A stretch of 16,000 bases of DNA from Ostreibacterium oceani (GTDB taxonomy: Bacteria; Pseudomonadota; Gammaproteobacteria; Cardiobacteriales; Ostreibacteriaceae), in assembly GCF_009362845.1 (NCBI RefSeq), contig NZ_WHNW01000015.1, positions 8,785-24,784 on the forward strand, written 5' to 3'. Numbering within the stretch: the stretch's first letter is position 1; every line of letters begins with the position of its first letter. The notes beneath the pieces are model-generated. The model was not told the origin of the DNA. It did not search any database and saw only the letters and a program-made list of their open reading frames with translations. This document shows, in pieces, positions 2,749 through 12,131 of this stretch. Made by a program: the position numbers and the translations under genes.

Positions 2749-4266
2749 TTAATTAAATTTTTCAGGTCGCATGTAGGGGAATAATAACACATCACGAATT
2801 GACGCGGCATCGGTTAATAGCATCACGAGACGGTCAATACCAATACCCTCGCCCGCGGTTGGCGGCATCCCGTATTCCAACGCCCTGATATAATCGTGAT
2901 CAAACTGCATGGCTTCATCATCACCTGCGGCTTTGGCTTGGACTTGTTCGGCAAACCGTGCAGCCTGATCCTCGGCATCGTTTAACTCAGAAAACCCATT
3001 GGCAATTTCTCGGCCCGCGATAAATAACTCAAACCGATCGGTCACCGAAGGATTGTCATCATTCCGCCGTGAAAGCGGTGATACTTCATCGGGGTAGTCT
3101 AAAATATACGTGGGCTGAATGAGCAAATGCTCGACCGTTTCTTCGAATAAAAACGTTTGCAGTTTAGCTAGGCTTTGATTGGCAGGCATAGAAACGCCCA
3201 ACTTTTTACCCAACGACTCAATGGCGTCAACACTAGATACATCTGCCGCGACGACCCCATCATGATATTGACAAATGGCATCACACATTGTCAGACGAGC
3301 AAATGGCTGACCAAAGTCAATGATTTGCCCTTGGTAAGTTACCTGCAACTGGCCATTTACCGCCAATACGACTTCTCGCAACAGCGTCTCAGTCAACGCC
3401 ATCAAATCCTGGTAATCGGCATAGGCTTGATAAAACTCTAACATGGTAAATTCGGGGTTGTGTCGCGTTGACACCCCTTCATTTCTAAAGTTACGATTGA
3501 TTTCAAAGACCCGCTCAAACCCACCAACCACTAAGCGTTTTAAATAAAGCTCAGGGGCTACACGCAAAAATAAATCAATATCTAGCGCATTATGGTGCGT
3601 CGTAAAGGGTTTTGCCGTCGCGCCACCCATAATCGTATGCATCATCGGCGTTTCGACCTCTAGATAGCCCTGCGATTCAAAAAACTGGCGAATTAGACTG
3701 ACGACTTTGGAGCGCGTACGAAAAATATCCCGCGACTGCCCGTTCATAATCAAATCCACATAGCGCATACGGTAACGCTGCTCTTGATCGGATAGTCCAT
3801 GGAATTTTTCAGGCAATGGCCGCAGTGATTTGGTCAGTAACTGAATATCACTTACCTGAATCGTAAGCTCACCTGTTCGCGTTGTAAATAGGGTGCCTTT
3901 GGCACCAACAATATCGCCAACATCCCAGGTTTTAAAGTCTGTATATTCGCCTTCTGGCAACGCATCTCGCTGGACATAGCATTGTATGCGCCCTGTTGCG
4001 TCTTGAATTTGGATAAAACTGGCTTTGCCCATGATGCGTTTTGCCATGACGCGACCTGCCACGGCAACATTTGCCGCTGCTTGCGTTGATTCATCAGCGC
4101 CCGCAAAAGTTTCATGCAAATTCGCCGCATGGTGTGTGGGTTTAAACTGATTCGGAAACGCAATCCCTTTCTCACGAAGGGCCGCGAGTTTTTTGCGGCG
4201 CTCAGCGATTAATTGATTTTCTGTTTTTTCTTGGGGTTCTGTTTGTCCGGGGTTATTATCAGTCAT
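2749..4266 (-). CDS. lysS: Lysine--tRNA ligase (class II)
   Basis: 505 aa, a full-length LysRS-like sequence (..[17 protein letters not shown].., [27 protein letters not shown]). Its ATG overlaps the prfB stop as TAATG at 4264-4268, giving the classical prfB-lysS gene order. Confidence 0.95.
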
Positions 4267-5360
4267 TACACACCTTGTTTTAAACTTGCTTCGATAAATG
4301 GATCCAAATCGCCGTCTAATACGGCCTGTGTATTGCCCGTCTCTACCTGTGTCCGTAAATCCTTAATACGACCAGAGTCCAAGACATAAGAACGAATTTG
4401 GCTGCCCCAACCAATATCCGACTTGGTTGCCTCGAGGGCCTGTGATTCTGCTTGGCGCTTGAGCATTTCCAGCTCATACAATTTTGCCTTTAGTTGCTTC
4501 ATCGCCGTGTCTTTATTTTGATGCTGCGAACGGCCGTTTTGACACTGTACGACGGTATTGGTCGGCAAGTGCGTGATACGAACGGCTGATTCGGTTTTAT
4601 TCACGTGTTGTCCGCCAGCACCTGAGGCACGATACACATCAACGCGCAAATCGGATGGGTCAATTTCAATTTCAAAACTGTCATCGATTTCTGGCGATAC
4701 AAATACCGATGCAAACGATGTATGTCGGCGCGCACCCGAATCAAACGGCGATTTTCGCACCAACCGATGCACGCCTGTCTCGGTTCGTAGCCAGCCATAG
4801 GCATATTCACCTTGGACATGAATGGTCGCCGATTTGATACCAGCGACTTCACCGACGGACTCTTCGATAACCTCTACTTGAAATCCTTTTTGCTCTGCCC
4901 AACGCAAGTACATTCGCAGTATCATACTAGCCCAATCTTGGGCCTCTGTGCCACCCGAACCCGACTGGATGTCAAGGTAAGCATTATTGGCATCGGCTTT
5001 GCCTGAGAACATACGGCGAAATTCTAGCTGTGCCAATTGCTTTAGCGCGGTGTCAATATCAGCGGTAATGTCATCAACCGTGTCTGTGTCTGCTTCTTCC
5101 TGTGCAATTTCTAACATGCCTTCTGAATCAAGCAGCGTGGTACGAATCGTATCTAGCGTGTTGATGTTTTTTTCTAGTGCGGTTTTTTCTTGGTTTAACT
5201 GCGCTGCGGTGTCGGGATTGTCCCAGACCGCAGGCTCAGATAGCTCACGCAGGACTTCTTCGAGGCGTTCAACCATCGCTTCATACGCCATGTAGTCACG
5301 CATGGCCAATTCGCGGGCACAGCCGTCTTTAATTTGCTCGAATAAGTGCGCTAACTCCAT
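4266..5360 (-). CDS. prfB: Peptide chain release factor 2
   Basis: It carries the SPF tripeptide (VRKSPFDS) and the GGQ motif ([13 protein letters not shown]). I place the start at the ATG at 5360 ([13 protein letters not shown]..), which gives 364 aa, the usual RF2 length. The 53-aa extension in the ORF track (to 5519, GTG start) has no RF2 similarity and overlaps the predicted promoter. Confidence 0.93.
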
Positions 5361-5431: not shown

Positions 5432-5524
5432 CGTTTATTGTGCATCTGTCAGCCCAAAGGGTTAATGTCCGCTTTATTCCCAAGCAGAAATGTCCGCTTT
5501 TGGGTATTGAAAATGACACAGAGG

Positions 5525-5558: not shown

Positions 5559-6206
5559 TTAAGTCGTATATCCGTAATTGCGTGGTGTCCCTAAGTGGTC
5601 GTTTTGGTAATAGCTGTAGCTTAAGCTATCCCCCGCTTTGTCGATTTTGACCAATGGATTGGTGGTGTAGGGGCTGTTTGGCTCGTACAAATAGCCCTGA
5701 ATAAACTCACCCCGCTCGTCAAACTCAGCCGTCAGTCCGTTGTGCGTGTAGAAGTAATACGTGGTCTGGCTATCGTTGCTTTTTTGCACGGTTTTCTTAA
5801 CACGGCGGTTTTCTAAGTCATAAGTATTTTGCTGGACGAATTGTTGCCCTTCTTGCCCACCGCGAGTAACGCTCACCAGGCGCTGACGCACGTCATACGC
5901 ATAATCGGTGGTGAGATTGCTGGCGGTCTCGACCAACTGGCTGGTATTGCCGTTGGTGTCGTATTGGAAATTGTTAAGCGGTGTGTTAATCAGCTGATCA
6001 CGCGCGTTGTATTGCCACTGCCCCGTCCCCGCTAACAAATCACTCAAGCGATTACCCACCTTGTCATACGAATACGTCTCGTTATCCAAAGTCGGATGAT
6101 TGGCTTGAATCAAGCGATACGCCGCATCATAGCTATAATCATACACGCCATGCTCGGTGGTTTTTTTGAGGATATTCCCCACCTTGTCATGATAGGCTCT
6201 ACTCGG
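5559..6206 (-). pseudogene. Orphan Rhs/YD-repeat fragment, truncated at both the 5' and 3' ends
   Basis: The translation carries successive YD repeats (YHDKVGN, YDYSYDAAYRL, YSYDKVGNRL, FQYDTNGN, YAYDVRQRL, YDLENRRV). It ends with ..YSYYQNDHLGTPR, the opening motif of the Rhs-associated core, then NYGYTT-stop. It has no N-terminal domain, the first ~25 codons of track ORF 5559..6287 are non-homologous read-in, and it lacks the rest of the core and any C-terminal domain. Confidence 0.85.
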
Positions 6207-6576
6207 AATCTGACCCACTATTCGTACTATCTGTGCCACCGTAGTCATTATTTCCATATGAAAGCGCCGAACTTGGCTCAGCACCATTTAAATAATTCAA
6301 CTTTACATCAAGATAAATTTCATCATAGTTGGCTTGTTGCACCTCCTCTTCGAAGTATTTCTTTATCTCCACTTCATCGCCAAAGCAAACCAATGCATGA
6401 TATTTAGCCAAATAAGATAATTTGCATGCATCAATTGTTTTAGTGATTTGGGCATAAGTGTAGGATGATTGACGACCATAACGACGCACCAGATGATAAG
6501 AAAGTTTGCGAATACAGGTCTTAATAAGTTTTTTATTATAACACCTACGTAACCAGCTAAACATATCAAACCTCAT
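6199..6576 (-). CDS. Small hypothetical protein with a basic N-terminal half and an acidic Gly/Ser/Asp-rich tail. Candidate immunity or accessory gene of the Rhs module.
   Basis: The ATG at 6576 is 4 nt after the stop of the preceding ORF (the track uses TTG at 6579). The sequence is MRFDMFSWLRRCYNKKLIKTCIRKLSYHLVRRYGRQSSYTYAQI...NNDYGGTDSTNSGSDSE. The DNA is AT-rich. I recognise no enzymatic motif, signal peptide or TM segment. Confidence 0.55.
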   Translation of the reverse strand: MRFDMFSWLRRCYNKKLIKTCIRKLSYHLVRRYGRQSSYTYAQITKTIDACKLSYLAKYHALVCFGDEVEIKKYFEEEVQQANYDEIYLDVKLNYLNGAEPSSALSYGNNDYGGTDSTNSGSDSE

Positions 6577-6579
6577 CAA

Positions 6580-6939
6580 CTAATTAGCGAAATGATTAAC
6601 GAAATGTAACTCGGCATAATCGTTATCGACATCCAACTCATAAGTCACCTCATAATTAATCTCTTTTTCTGATAAATTTTGAGAATGGACGAAAAGCAGC
6701 ATTGAGGCAGTATAACCAACTACAGCATTACCAGGAATAACAGTAAACATACTTTTAAACATCATTTTTTTATAATCAGTATGAGACCTCATTAATGGAA
6801 AGATATGTTTGCATAATTTTAGGATATACTGCCGTTGATTGAAAACCACAGTGACCGAATCTCCCGCTAAAAGGCATCGAAATATATGACGAATCGGTTC
6901 TATTGATTTCCAAGTCATTTGATATGTGATTTTTTCCAT
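6580..6939 (-). CDS. Hypothetical 119-aa protein in the canonical immunity-gene position, immediately downstream of the Rhs C-terminal domain
   Basis: The ATG lies 12 nt after the stop of the chimeric Rhs-CT ORF. The DNA is very AT-rich (spot counts 25-35% G+C). There is one moderately hydrophobic stretch (MFTVIPGNAVVGYTASMLLFV). I recognise no family. Confidence 0.55.
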   Translation of the reverse strand: MEKITYQMTWKSIEPIRHIFRCLLAGDSVTVVFNQRQYILKLCKHIFPLMRSHTDYKKMMFKSMFTVIPGNAVVGYTASMLLFVHSQNLSEKEINYEVTYELDVDNDYAELHFVNHFAN

Positions 6940-6951
6940 AACGATAATAAA

Positions 6952-7539
6952 CTATTCAATCGCGTTACATACTGTAATTACGCAACCAGCTAAAATCGCA
7001 CCACAGCCACCAAAACATATCGCAGCTGTCCATGGCGTCTTTGTCCATGGTGATGTGATGCAAAATACAGTACACAGTTTGAATGATGACCAACAAAACT
7101 TCCCTCTATTTTTTCCTTTTGGTGATCCGCCAGGTGGAGTGGGTTGTGTGCCAGGAGGTTCAATGGTTTCTATCCCACCTGGAATGCTAGGCTTTTTCTT
7201 TTTTAGCCCATCTTCGTCCACAAACACCAACGGGTTTTGGCGCGCATACCCATACGTATTAATGCCACCTGCTAATCCAATCGGGTCGGTTTGCAAGTAG
7301 CGACCTAGGTTAGGATTATAATCCCTGTGGTAGTTTTGGTAAAGGTTAATTTCTTCGTCATGTATCTGCCCTGCATCACGTTCGAATAACTTGACCGCTA
7401 ATTGTGTTTCTAGTGCGGCAATCCGCGAGGAAATCGCGGGCTGGGTGGTATAGAGCTTTTCTGCCGTTTTATGAAAGTTTTTCAAGGCGGCTAGCCAAAC
7501 AAACGCTTCTAATTGTTTTATAGTAAAATTCAATGACAT
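6952..7539 (-). CDS. Chimeric ORF: LysR-type HTH remnant (aa 1-56), then the Rhs core C-terminal end (aa 57-112), then an 83-aa Cys-rich hydrophobic C-terminal toxin-like domain
   Basis: aa 1-56 are IKQLEAFVWLAALKNFHKTAEKLYTTQPAISSRIAALETQLAVKLFERD, an LTTR winged HTH. aa 57-112 are GQIHDEEINLYQNYHRDYNPNLGRYLQTDPIGLAGGINTYGYARQNPLVFVDEDGL, the Rhs core tail. aa 113-195 are KKKKPSIPGG..FCWSSFKLCTVFCITSPW..AAICFGGCGAILAGCVITVCNAIE. The reading frame is intact, but it may be a non-functional fusion. Confidence 0.8.
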   Translation of the reverse strand: MSLNFTIKQLEAFVWLAALKNFHKTAEKLYTTQPAISSRIAALETQLAVKLFERDAGQIHDEEINLYQNYHRDYNPNLGRYLQTDPIGLAGGINTYGYARQNPLVFVDEDGLKKKKPSIPGGIETIEPPGTQPTPPGGSPKGKNRGKFCWSSFKLCTVFCITSPWTKTPWTAAICFGGCGAILAGCVITVCNAIE

Positions 7540-7609: not shown

Positions 7610-7646
7610 GCGTTCGTCTTTTCTGACCGCGTTCGTCTTGTCTGAC
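7610..7646. repeat. Tandem 19-bp-period duplication (GCGTTCGTCTTtTCTGAC c GCGTTCGTCTTgTCTGAC)
   Basis: Two 18-nt copies with one mismatch sit at 7610-7627 and 7629-7646. They lie in the 159-bp spacer between the cytochrome b561 stop and the start of the LysR remnant. Confidence 0.8.
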
Positions 7647-7698
7647 TGCCTGTACCTGCCAGGTTATCCCATCGATTAGATAAAAAATACCAAACGAG

Positions 7699-11159: not shown

Positions 11160-12131
11160 ATGACAATCAAACAACTGCGCTATATTGTCGCAGTCACTGA
11201 AAACCAATTCAACATCTCTTATACCGCTGAGAAACTCTTTACTTCTCAGCCCGGTATTAGCAAACAAATCAAGCTGTTTGAAGAGAGCTTAGGGTGTAAA
11301 ATATTCACCCGAAATGGTAAAGCCTTAGTCGGTCTAACGCCACTAGGCAATGATATTGTTGAACAAGCAAGAATCATCCTAGCCGAAATCGACAACCTCG
11401 TTGTCATCACAAAAGCCAACCACAGCGAAAAAAACACCACGCTCACCATCGCCACCACGCAAACCCAATCGGGTTATGTCCTGCCAGGGGTGCTCAAGCA
11501 ATTTCATCAGCAATACCCCAACATCAAGTTAATTATCGAAAATGGCACAATGGACCAGTTAATTGAGATCGCCAAGCACCGTCGTGCTGATTGTATTATC
11601 CTATCAGGAACCAACGATACCTTAAAGCGAGAATGGCTGCCCAACATGTTGGTCATTCCTTGTTTTCAGTGGAGCTTTAGCGCAATTTGCCCGCCAAACC
11701 ACCCGCTCGCCAAAATGACCACGCCTACCATTGACTATATTGCCGCCAATCCTATCATCACCTATGTGGCGTCGGCTTTACGCACGAGTACGCTAGATAC
11801 CTTCCCTAACATTATCGCCACATCAAACGACCCACAAGTCATCAAGCAATACGTCAGAAATGGCATGGGTGTCGGTATTATTGCCAGCATGGCTTACGAC
11901 AAACGTATCGACAGTGAGTTAGTTGAAATTCCATTGCAAGGCATCTTGCCCAAATGCACGACGATGATTGCCGTTGAACGCGCCAATATACTTCGACCGC
12001 ATGTACACCGATTTATTAAGCTATTTGCACCGCACATCACCAGCGAAGACTTCGAAAGCGCCAATCACCAACAAGACATTGATCCAGTCGAGTCCCCCTT
12101 ACCCGATCAAAGTAGTCATTGGTTTATTTGA
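11160..12131 (+). CDS. cysB: LysR-family transcriptional regulator, CysB/Cbl-like
   Basis: 323 aa. The N-terminus [54 protein letters not shown] parallels E. coli CysB ([54 protein letters not shown]), and the length matches. Calling it an orthologue rather than a paralogue is an inference. Confidence 0.75.
   Translation: [323 protein letters not shown]

Follow-up and report, generated by a model that had tools for sequence, protein, structure and literature searches.

A singleton hydrophobic, cysteine-rich tip in an orphan Rhs cassette of Ostreibacterium oceani

Polymorphic C-terminal tips of Rhs proteins are already known, as are membrane-active precedents. Tse5 (RhsP1, PA2684) of Pseudomonas aeruginosa is an Rhs effector whose C-terminal domain (Tse5-CT) forms cation-selective pores (PMC9637101, PMC10684867), and an aspartyl autoproteolysis motif of the form DPxGL-18-DPxGL sets its core/tip boundary (PMC9637101). 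Depolarising toxins with glycine zippers include EsxX, TelE and TspA, which are LXG toxins of the type VII secretion system, and the ionophore CdiA-CTs of contact-dependent growth inhibition (CDI) (PMC12744356, PMC11630599); EsxX is neutralised in its producer by the soluble heterodimer ExiAB, which sequesters the zipper (PMC12744356). Ssp4 is a pore former whose activity depends on DsbA of the target cell (PMC5792426, PMC12669606). Orphan rhs-CT/immunity cassettes lie downstream of main rhs genes in Salmonella, E. coli and Serratia (for orphan immunity, PMC10539506). Here we describe a cassette in Ostreibacterium oceani (Cardiobacteriales), located in a 16-kb stretch of contig NZ_WHNW01000015.1 (positions 8,785 to 24,784 of the forward strand; this whole stretch is the window, and its numbering is used throughout). 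The minus-strand open reading frame (ORF) 6952..7539, referred to as the carrier ORF, encodes a 195-aa protein (WP_152810964.1 / MPV86974.1) that ends in an 83-aa tip, which an original prediction made from the DNA had proposed to be a small membrane-active Rhs toxin domain.

The tip resembles Tse5 in following a DPxGL-18-DPxGL-type Rhs core end, in having no enzymatic signature, in containing hydrophobic/amphipathic helices and in its proposed depolarising activity, and given the precedent of Tse5-CT (PMC9637101) a membrane-active Rhs tip is a less unusual concept than the original prediction implied. It differs in that Tse5-CT is 149 aa long and contains several transmembrane (TM) and amphipathic helices, whereas the hydrophobic core of the O. 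oceani tip is 48 aa with one TM-grade helix; in that Tse5 is a full-length PAAR-like Rhs protein encoded beside VgrG4, whereas the O. oceani tip has no cage, PAAR or VgrG; and in that the immunity protein Tsi5 has two TM segments, whereas the O. oceani candidates are soluble with no TM-grade segment. Exhaustive phmmer and a PDB sequence search detected no similarity between Tse5-CT and the tip. With EsxX, TelE, TspA and the CDI ionophores the tip shares a short C-terminal hydrophobic helix, a small-xxx-small ladder and a modular toxin scaffold, and its two small soluble downstream proteins are a possible analogue of ExiAB; those toxins, however, have extended GxxxGxxxG zippers, no Cys ladder and many-member families, whereas the O. 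oceani tip has an AxxxGxxxAxxxG ladder and no homology to them. Orphan rhs-CT cassettes offer the parallel of a short Rhs core homology, a tip, a candidate immunity gene and a further core fragment, with no N-terminal Rhs body and a GC content below that of the host. The O. oceani locus departs from them in having no adjacent main rhs gene in the window, an in-frame fusion to a LysR helix-turn-helix (HTH), and a next fragment that is cut before its own tip. Judged from sequence, the tip falls outside the Tse5, glycine-zipper and Ssp4 families, and the locus is in its architecture an ordinary orphan rhs-CT cassette apart from an accidental LysR fusion.

The locus has the anatomy of an orphan or relic Rhs cassette, a statement we make with high confidence, and what is new in it is a singleton tip sequence. 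The fuller reading that we favour, in which the tip of this relic is or was a small, non-enzymatic, membrane-inserting hairpin toxin, is offered tentatively.

The chimeric carrier gene and its tip

The carrier ORF is a chimera and not an Rhs protein, and joins a LysR HTH (56 codons) to an Rhs core end (56 residues) and the tip. Its naming differs between databases: it is an Rhs core protein at NCBI ('RHS repeat-associated core domain-containing protein') and a LysR regulator at UniProt. The sequence itself forms a one-member cluster and is located on one 29.9-kb contig. Residues 7-58 match Pfam HTH_1 (E=1.1e-15), and the HTH is 44% identical to that of the intact LysR gene at 11160..12131; no LysR effector-binding domain is left anywhere in the locus. 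The Rhs stub aligns with the C-terminal ends of solved Rhs, Tse5 and TccC cores, and because these alignments begin at G57-Q58 the breakpoint is placed at ...KLFERDA|GQIHDEE..., within an in-frame LysR HTH/Rhs core junction at window 7366-7380 (-), codons 54-59 of the ORF. The carrier protein has neither a complete YD-repeat cage nor a PAAR or VgrG-binding delivery domain at its N-terminus, where the LysR HTH stands instead. Translation of the chimera would yield a protein that begins with a DNA-binding HTH and ends in a hydrophobic hairpin.

The aspartyl autoproteolysis motif is intact in the stub, reading DPIGL (85-89), 18 residues, DEDGL (108-112); the Pro of the second half is replaced by Glu, and the Asp-to-Asp spacing is 23, as in Tse5. 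Because this motif is kept, the tip start originally chosen, directly after ...VFVDEDGL, is correct. The naming of the tip as an Rhs C-terminal domain was right to the extent that it follows what is recognisably a genuine Rhs core end with a predicted self-cleavage motif, and wrong to the extent that this core end is a 56-residue stub on a LysR HTH and not a deployable toxin. A sigma-70-like site (TTTACC-17-TATAAT, 10/12 matches) lies within the stub at window 7315-7343 (-), ~110 nt upstream of the tip, and could serve as promoter for the tip and the genes of the immunity region; sites resembling promoters or terminators are, however, about as frequent here as shuffles predict.

The tip, KKKKPSIPGGIETIEPPGTQPTPPGGSPKGKNRGKFCWSSFKLCTVFCITSPWTKTPWTAAICFGGCGAILAGCVITVCNAIE, is the exact translation of window 6955..7203 (-) and comprises residues 113-195 of the ORF. 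It contains the Lys/Pro/Gly linker, the seven cysteines (ORF positions 149, 156, 160, 175, 179, 186 and 191) and the small-residue ladder that had been described, the ladder having four rungs, A173-G177-A181-G185 (AxxxGxxxAxxxG), one more than originally given. The 83-codon frame is open in 1.1% of dinucleotide-preserving shuffles (8.9% for the 48 hydrophobic codons alone) and that of the ORF immediately downstream, ORF119, in 0.06%, so that tip and ORF119 both look like real coding sequence. Chance hardly explains the division of the 83 aa into a polar linker and a hydrophobic tail: over 19 residues the Kyte-Doolittle value peaks at 2.19, which 0.09% of amino-acid shuffles attain. Asp, His, Arg, Gln, Tyr and Met are all missing from the 48-aa core; this and the small size make an enzyme very unlikely, and the earlier statement that no catalytic signature or fold can be recognised is upheld by Pfam, NCBIfam, a PDB sequence search and Foldseek, all of which were empty.

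The proposed helical hairpin is reproduced by AlphaFold2 (AF2), which predicts a disordered linker followed by a helix-loop-helix (tip residues 33-50 and 57-81, loop SPWTKT) with a predicted local confidence (pLDDT) of 70-84 in the helices. The claim of two hydrophobic segments stands for the second only: helix 2 is TM-grade (Kyte-Doolittle 2.19 over 19 residues, Hessa biological-scale sum ~0 kcal/mol) and could span a membrane, whereas helix 1 (Kyte-Doolittle 0.87, Hessa 19-residue sum +6.8 kcal/mol) is not TM-competent alone. Helix 2 also contains a lipobox-like LAGC (L183-A184-G185-C186) after its hydrophobic run.

Around the loop, six of the seven cysteines are arranged in mirror image (149+186 = 156+179 = 160+175 = 335), giving the pattern Cx6Cx3C...Cx3Cx6C, that is, a twin CX3C in mirror register (C156-x3-C160 and C175-x3-C179) plus the outer pair C149/C186, with both triplets inside the AF2 helices. 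Three nested same-sum Cys pairs occur in 1.7% of core shuffles, and in 0.15% if helical spacing (3, 4 or 7) is also required. Plotted on a helical wheel, the cysteines of each triplet line up in a tight stripe (circular R=0.96), and the A/G ladder of helix 2 lies ~140 degrees off the stripe. This is the geometry expected in the model if the stripes form an intramolecular helix-helix interface, through tight packing or three disulfides, leaving the ladder face free for oligomerisation. Twin CX3C/CX9C CHCH proteins and plant alpha-hairpinins are Cys-stabilised alpha-helical hairpins, soluble and eukaryotic. The Cys geometry of the tip presumably matches these twin-CX3C and CHCH-type hairpins, with two antiparallel helices (predicted in the tip), a CX3C on each in mirror arrangement and a third, outer pair; it differs from them in that helix 2 is TM-grade and the disulfides are putative, and the searches brought up no homology.

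The tip is a singleton in the searched databases. Exhaustive phmmer of the 83 aa against 1.84 billion representatives (~15 billion proteins) returned the query itself and two eukaryotic repeat proteins, which were rejected as spurious, the matches running through tip residues 10-50 and 27-44 and recurring 5-6 times in each protein. No tip relative was found in a word-indexed search of 5.8 billion clusters or in a scan of 185,579 GTDB species genomes, and tblastn against plasmids gave noise only (E of at least 2). The tip alone had no match in Pfam at E up to 10 or in PHROGs; with the whole ORF, NCBIfam matched the LysR and Rhs parts only and PADLOC gave nothing for the tip. No homologous match was returned by the PDB sequence search, and Foldseek of the tip model against the PDB gave generic helical hairpins only (E of at least 2.8); no enzyme was matched by family or by fold. 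Of the remaining reading frames over the tip, one has GHH/HHH strings; neither matched a family. A metagenome scan of 241 million records yielded one match, L002, retrieved via the exact 8-mer CGAILAGC; positions 2938-3017 of this metagenome locus encode an N-terminal lipoprotein signal peptide, MGLWSKTTFTAYVCLFLCGAILAGC|VVHS, 63% identical over 24 residues to tip residues 53-76. L002 was rejected as a tip homologue: it is the signal peptide of an unrelated gene in an unrelated gene context, a likeness and not a homology.

Candidate immunity genes and the second Rhs fragment

Two small ORFs follow the carrier ORF (Table 1). ORF119 is the candidate cognate immunity gene. It has no Shine-Dalgarno sequence, is absent in either plausible start form from the ~15-billion-protein collection, apparently never having been annotated, and had no homologue in the word-indexed search; it is probably a missed gene. 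AF2 models a self-contained alpha/beta fold from residue 3 (predicted TM-score, pTM, 0.61) with no significant match in the PDB (best E=0.014, TM<0.45), and its most hydrophobic stretch (Kyte-Doolittle 1.46) is modelled as a beta-strand and is not TM-grade, so that a soluble alpha/beta protein is predicted. The second ORF encodes a DUF6559 protein with a Kyte-Doolittle maximum of 0.79 and no TM-grade segment. Neither product is polytopic, as the original prediction had remarked in caution, and since soluble ExiAB sequesters the glycine-zipper toxin EsxX (PMC12744356), the lack of a polytopic immunity protein is no longer decisive. The carrier ORF, ORF119 and the DUF6559 gene lie in one frame (window 6199-7539 (-)) with single stops between them (NAIE*FIIVMEKI... 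and HFAN*LMRFDMFSW...).

The link of DUF6559 to the tip is uncertain, since its relative is found in an Rhs-free context. The one non-self relative detected is on a 1.2-kb contig from an uncultured organism (L001, Logan SRR29340340), with 60% protein identity and 83% DNA identity over the central 211 nt (L001 239-449 against window 6273-6483) between unrelated flanks; the contig carries AT-rich non-coding DNA upstream of DUF6559, a predicted gene downstream and no Rhs sequence. A further genome scan for DUF6559 found nothing, and the literature offered no paper that mentions DUF6559 and nothing informative on Ostreibacterium. The DUF6559 gene seems to travel, or to be kept, independently of the toxin cassette; it may encode a second immunity or accessory protein, or it may be a passenger with no relation to the tip.

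Directly after the DUF6559 stop begins a second Rhs core fragment, which is cut at either end and stops ~200 nt before prfB. It matches Pfam RHS_repeat (5e-8), the first residues of PF03527 and the YD-repeat model TIGR01643, and besides it and the stub there is no further Rhs sequence in the locus. GC content is 0.33-0.36 over the end of the tip and the two small downstream ORFs compared with ~0.46 in the flanks, a drop of the kind that usually marks exchanged Rhs tip/immunity modules and may do so here. Simplest would be to read the whole as a slice of an Rhs array, containing the end of one rhs gene, a tip and immunity region, and the start of the next orphan core fragment; deletions on either flank would have fused the slice in frame to LysR codon 56 on one side and cut it just upstream of prfB on the other. 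A 16-nt near-identical direct repeat is found in both Rhs fragments, at 5595-5610 (GTGGTCGTTTTGGTAA, encoding YQNDH) and 7327-7342 (GTGGTAGTTTTGGTAA, encoding YQNYH), and may be a rearrangement microhomology or mere likeness between YD repeats.

A survey of window ORFs of at least 100 aa with a Pfam match found no gene for a type VI secretion system (T6SS), VgrG, PAAR or Rhs cage anywhere in the 16 kb. With no cage, PAAR or VgrG partner, the tip is not deliverable in its present form. At most, the present cassette is silent and could be recombined into a full-length rhs gene via its 168-nt core homology; alternatively, it may be kept for a linked immunity gene.

Proposed activity of the hairpin and alternative explanations

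If the tip is or was a membrane-inserting hairpin toxin, it would on an intact Rhs protein be freed after DEDGL and delivered by a T6SS. The hairpin would then enter the target inner membrane with helix 2 spanning it and with the KNRGK cluster and the W-rich SPWTKTPW loop at the interfaces. The two helices would pack via their mirror-image Cys stripes, possibly as disulfides formed in the periplasm, and, on the other side of helix 2, the A/G ladder would drive oligomerisation into an ion-conducting assembly that dissipates the membrane potential. A more ambitious version holds that the tip defines an undescribed class of Rhs/T6SS cargo, a minimal helix-loop-helix membrane toxin that is zipped by cysteines, stapled by DsbA and forms channels. 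Here the tip would travel reduced and unfolded in the Rhs cage, be stapled in the periplasm by DsbA of the target cell and oligomerise through the A/G ladder into an ion channel, and the producer would be protected by ORF119 and DUF6559, which would sequester the tip in the way that ExiAB sequesters EsxX; we consider this version improbable.

Several results weigh against a membrane-active toxin. Decay is evident in the locus and may have damaged the tip as well. Since no homologue of the tip was found anywhere, neither conservation nor covariation speaks for it, and the tail was never found on a full-length polymorphic-toxin scaffold, here or elsewhere in the searched databases, an absence that the original prediction had counted as a refutation. 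The AF2 model was built from a single sequence with no alignment, and helix 1, which contains K154, S151 and S152, is far from TM-competent on its own. The glycine zipper originally suggested does not hold: the canonical motif is (G/A/S)xxxGxxxG or GxxxGxxx(G/S/T) (PMC12744356), and in no register does the AxxxGxxxAxxxG ladder include a central GxxxG. Ladders of four or more rungs are not significant (7.3% of shuffles of the 48-aa core), nor is the number of cysteines (seven, 6.4% under the dinucleotide-preserving null), and the Cys symmetry was spotted post hoc and is a lead, not a result. Codon adaptation of the hydrophobic part is 0.669 in the annotated frame against 0.692 and 0.789 in the other frames. 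The candidate immunity proteins, finally, are soluble and uncharacterised, one of them being also unannotated and without a Shine-Dalgarno sequence.

Of the competing explanations the one that survives best, although rather unlikely, is that the tip is truncated or decayed and the hairpin a leftover, either a translocation/entry module or the N-terminal part of a longer tip whose catalytic domain would have gone in the deletions that also truncated the Rhs genes. At least two other truncations are present at the locus (LysR at codon 56, and the second Rhs fragment at both ends), and the 48-aa core is far below the size of characterised Rhs tips, for which Tse5-CT at 149 aa serves as the comparison. 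That the 48 hydrophobic codons are open in as many as 8.9% of shuffles is little sign of constraint, and their codon adaptation is no better than that of the other frames. There is also precedent for hydrophobic GxxxG segments that serve translocation and not killing, the N-terminal GxxxG region of Tde1 carrying this DNase across the target membrane (PMC10240207). Set against this, the 12 nt from the stop to the ATG of the well-supported ORF119 form a normal, tidy toxin-immunity junction of a kind rarely recreated by random deletion, and since the alternative frames end even sooner (at 6990 and 6965), no single frameshift can restore a longer tip.

A loss by point mutation is a less probable variant, in which tip and ORF119 would once have formed a single domain of ~206 aa that the TAG at 6952-6954 has divided, and DUF6559 would be the immunity protein. 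The shared frame of the three ORFs, the mere four codons from the TAG to the ATG of ORF119, the typical tip size that 206 aa would represent, and the contrast between ORF119, unannotated and without a Shine-Dalgarno sequence, and DUF6559 with its good GAGG site all speak for such a split. However, ORF119 folds in AF2 as a self-contained alpha/beta domain, the read-through product of tip and ORF119 matches no family, the chance of three ORFs sharing a frame is ~1 in 9, and the DUF6559 homologue on L001 has no adjoining toxin gene. We give about as little credence to the proposal that the tip is a disulfide-stapled soluble mini-protein, a periplasmic binder of a target or of a metal that never inserts into a membrane. 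The mirror-symmetric Cys pattern, with each triplet on a single helical face, would suit such a protein, and DsbA-dependent activation of incoming T6SS effectors is documented (PMC5792426), but the TM-like hydrophobicity of helix 2 and its almost complete lack of polar surface are hard to square with a soluble 48-aa protein, and Foldseek gave no structural match in the PDB. An overprinted lipoprotein gene, possibly an immunity gene, whose signal peptide would be the second hydrophobic segment is essentially refuted: KTPWTAAICFGGCGAILAGC combines a basic residue with a hydrophobic run and the canonical lipobox L-A-G-C and resembles the bona fide N-terminal signal peptide of L002, but that locus was retrieved among the 241 million records through an exact 8-mer, no in-frame ATG, GTG or TTG lies upstream of the segment, and the 9 residues between the Cys and the stop leave no mature domain.

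Should the hairpin prove toxic, it would be among the smallest Rhs cargo domains and a compact, synthesisable model of how a T6SS-delivered peptide enters and depolarises a membrane; its Cys ladder would provide a built-in test of redox-dependent activation in the target periplasm, and the locus would add a Gram-negative example of a membrane toxin countered by soluble immunity proteins. Should it be inert, the locus is a worked example of Rhs array decay and a warning that chimeric relics can lie behind Rhs core annotations. The sequence is unique and the Cys symmetry intriguing, yet this is a decayed singleton with no comparative support, and current understanding is not overturned.

Further features of the window

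Table 1 Positions of the cassette features in the window
Feature	Position	Strand	Description
LysR-family HTH_1 part	7372..7539	(-)	First 56 codons; start codon and upstream region of the chimera come from here
Rhs core end	7204..7371	(-)	G57-L112, 56 residues; TIGR03696 Rhs_assc_core, aa 56-112, E=2.5e-19
Tip linker	7099..7203	(-)	K113-K147, 35 aa, Lys/Pro/Gly-rich; pLDDT ~50, no AF2 secondary structure
Predicted helix 1	7054..7107	(-)	aa 145-162, RGKFCWSSFKLCTVFCIT; amphipathic to weakly hydrophobic; C149, C156 and C160 on one face
Predicted helix 2	6961..7035	(-)	aa 169-193, PWTAAICFGGCGAILAGCVITVCNA; TM-grade hydrophobicity; stripe of C175, C179 and C186
TAG stop of chimeric ORF	6952..6954	(-)	ORF119 start 12 nt downstream, same reading frame
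ORF119	6580..6939	(-)	119 aa, 33% GC, starts 12 nt after chimera stop; candidate cognate immunity protein
DUF6559 gene	6199..6564	(-)	121 aa; Pfam DUF6559, E=2.2e-12; GAGG Shine-Dalgarno 7 nt upstream; NCBI-annotated
Second Rhs core fragment	5559..6200	(-)	YD repeats up to ...YYQNDHLGTPR; ~213 aa; NCBI MPV86973.1

The rest of the window genes are housekeeping, transport and regulator genes, encoding a GATase, an ArgA-like amino-acid kinase/GNAT protein, lysS, prfB, cytochromes b561 and b562, a serine dehydratase, the intact LysR regulator, an ABC-2 transporter and an aminotransferase. Neither Rfam nor a tRNA scan gave a hit in the window. Two 19-nt copies in tandem, GCGTTCGTCTTTTCTGACC / GCGTTCGTCTTGTCTGACT (89% identical), form a direct repeat at window 7610-7647, between the chimeric ORF and the cytochrome b561 gene and ~70-110 nt upstream of the start codon of the chimeric ORF; the repeat may have served the former LysR gene as a site for regulator binding. 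Upstream of prfB (window 5464-5500), the 12-nt sequence AATGTCCGCTTT is repeated exactly in direct orientation, the two copies lying 25 nt apart. A programmed +1 frameshift occurs in the RF2 genes of many bacteria; the window prfB (4266-5360 (-)) is a single frame of 364 codons from the ATG at 5360 and appears to encode RF2 without it.

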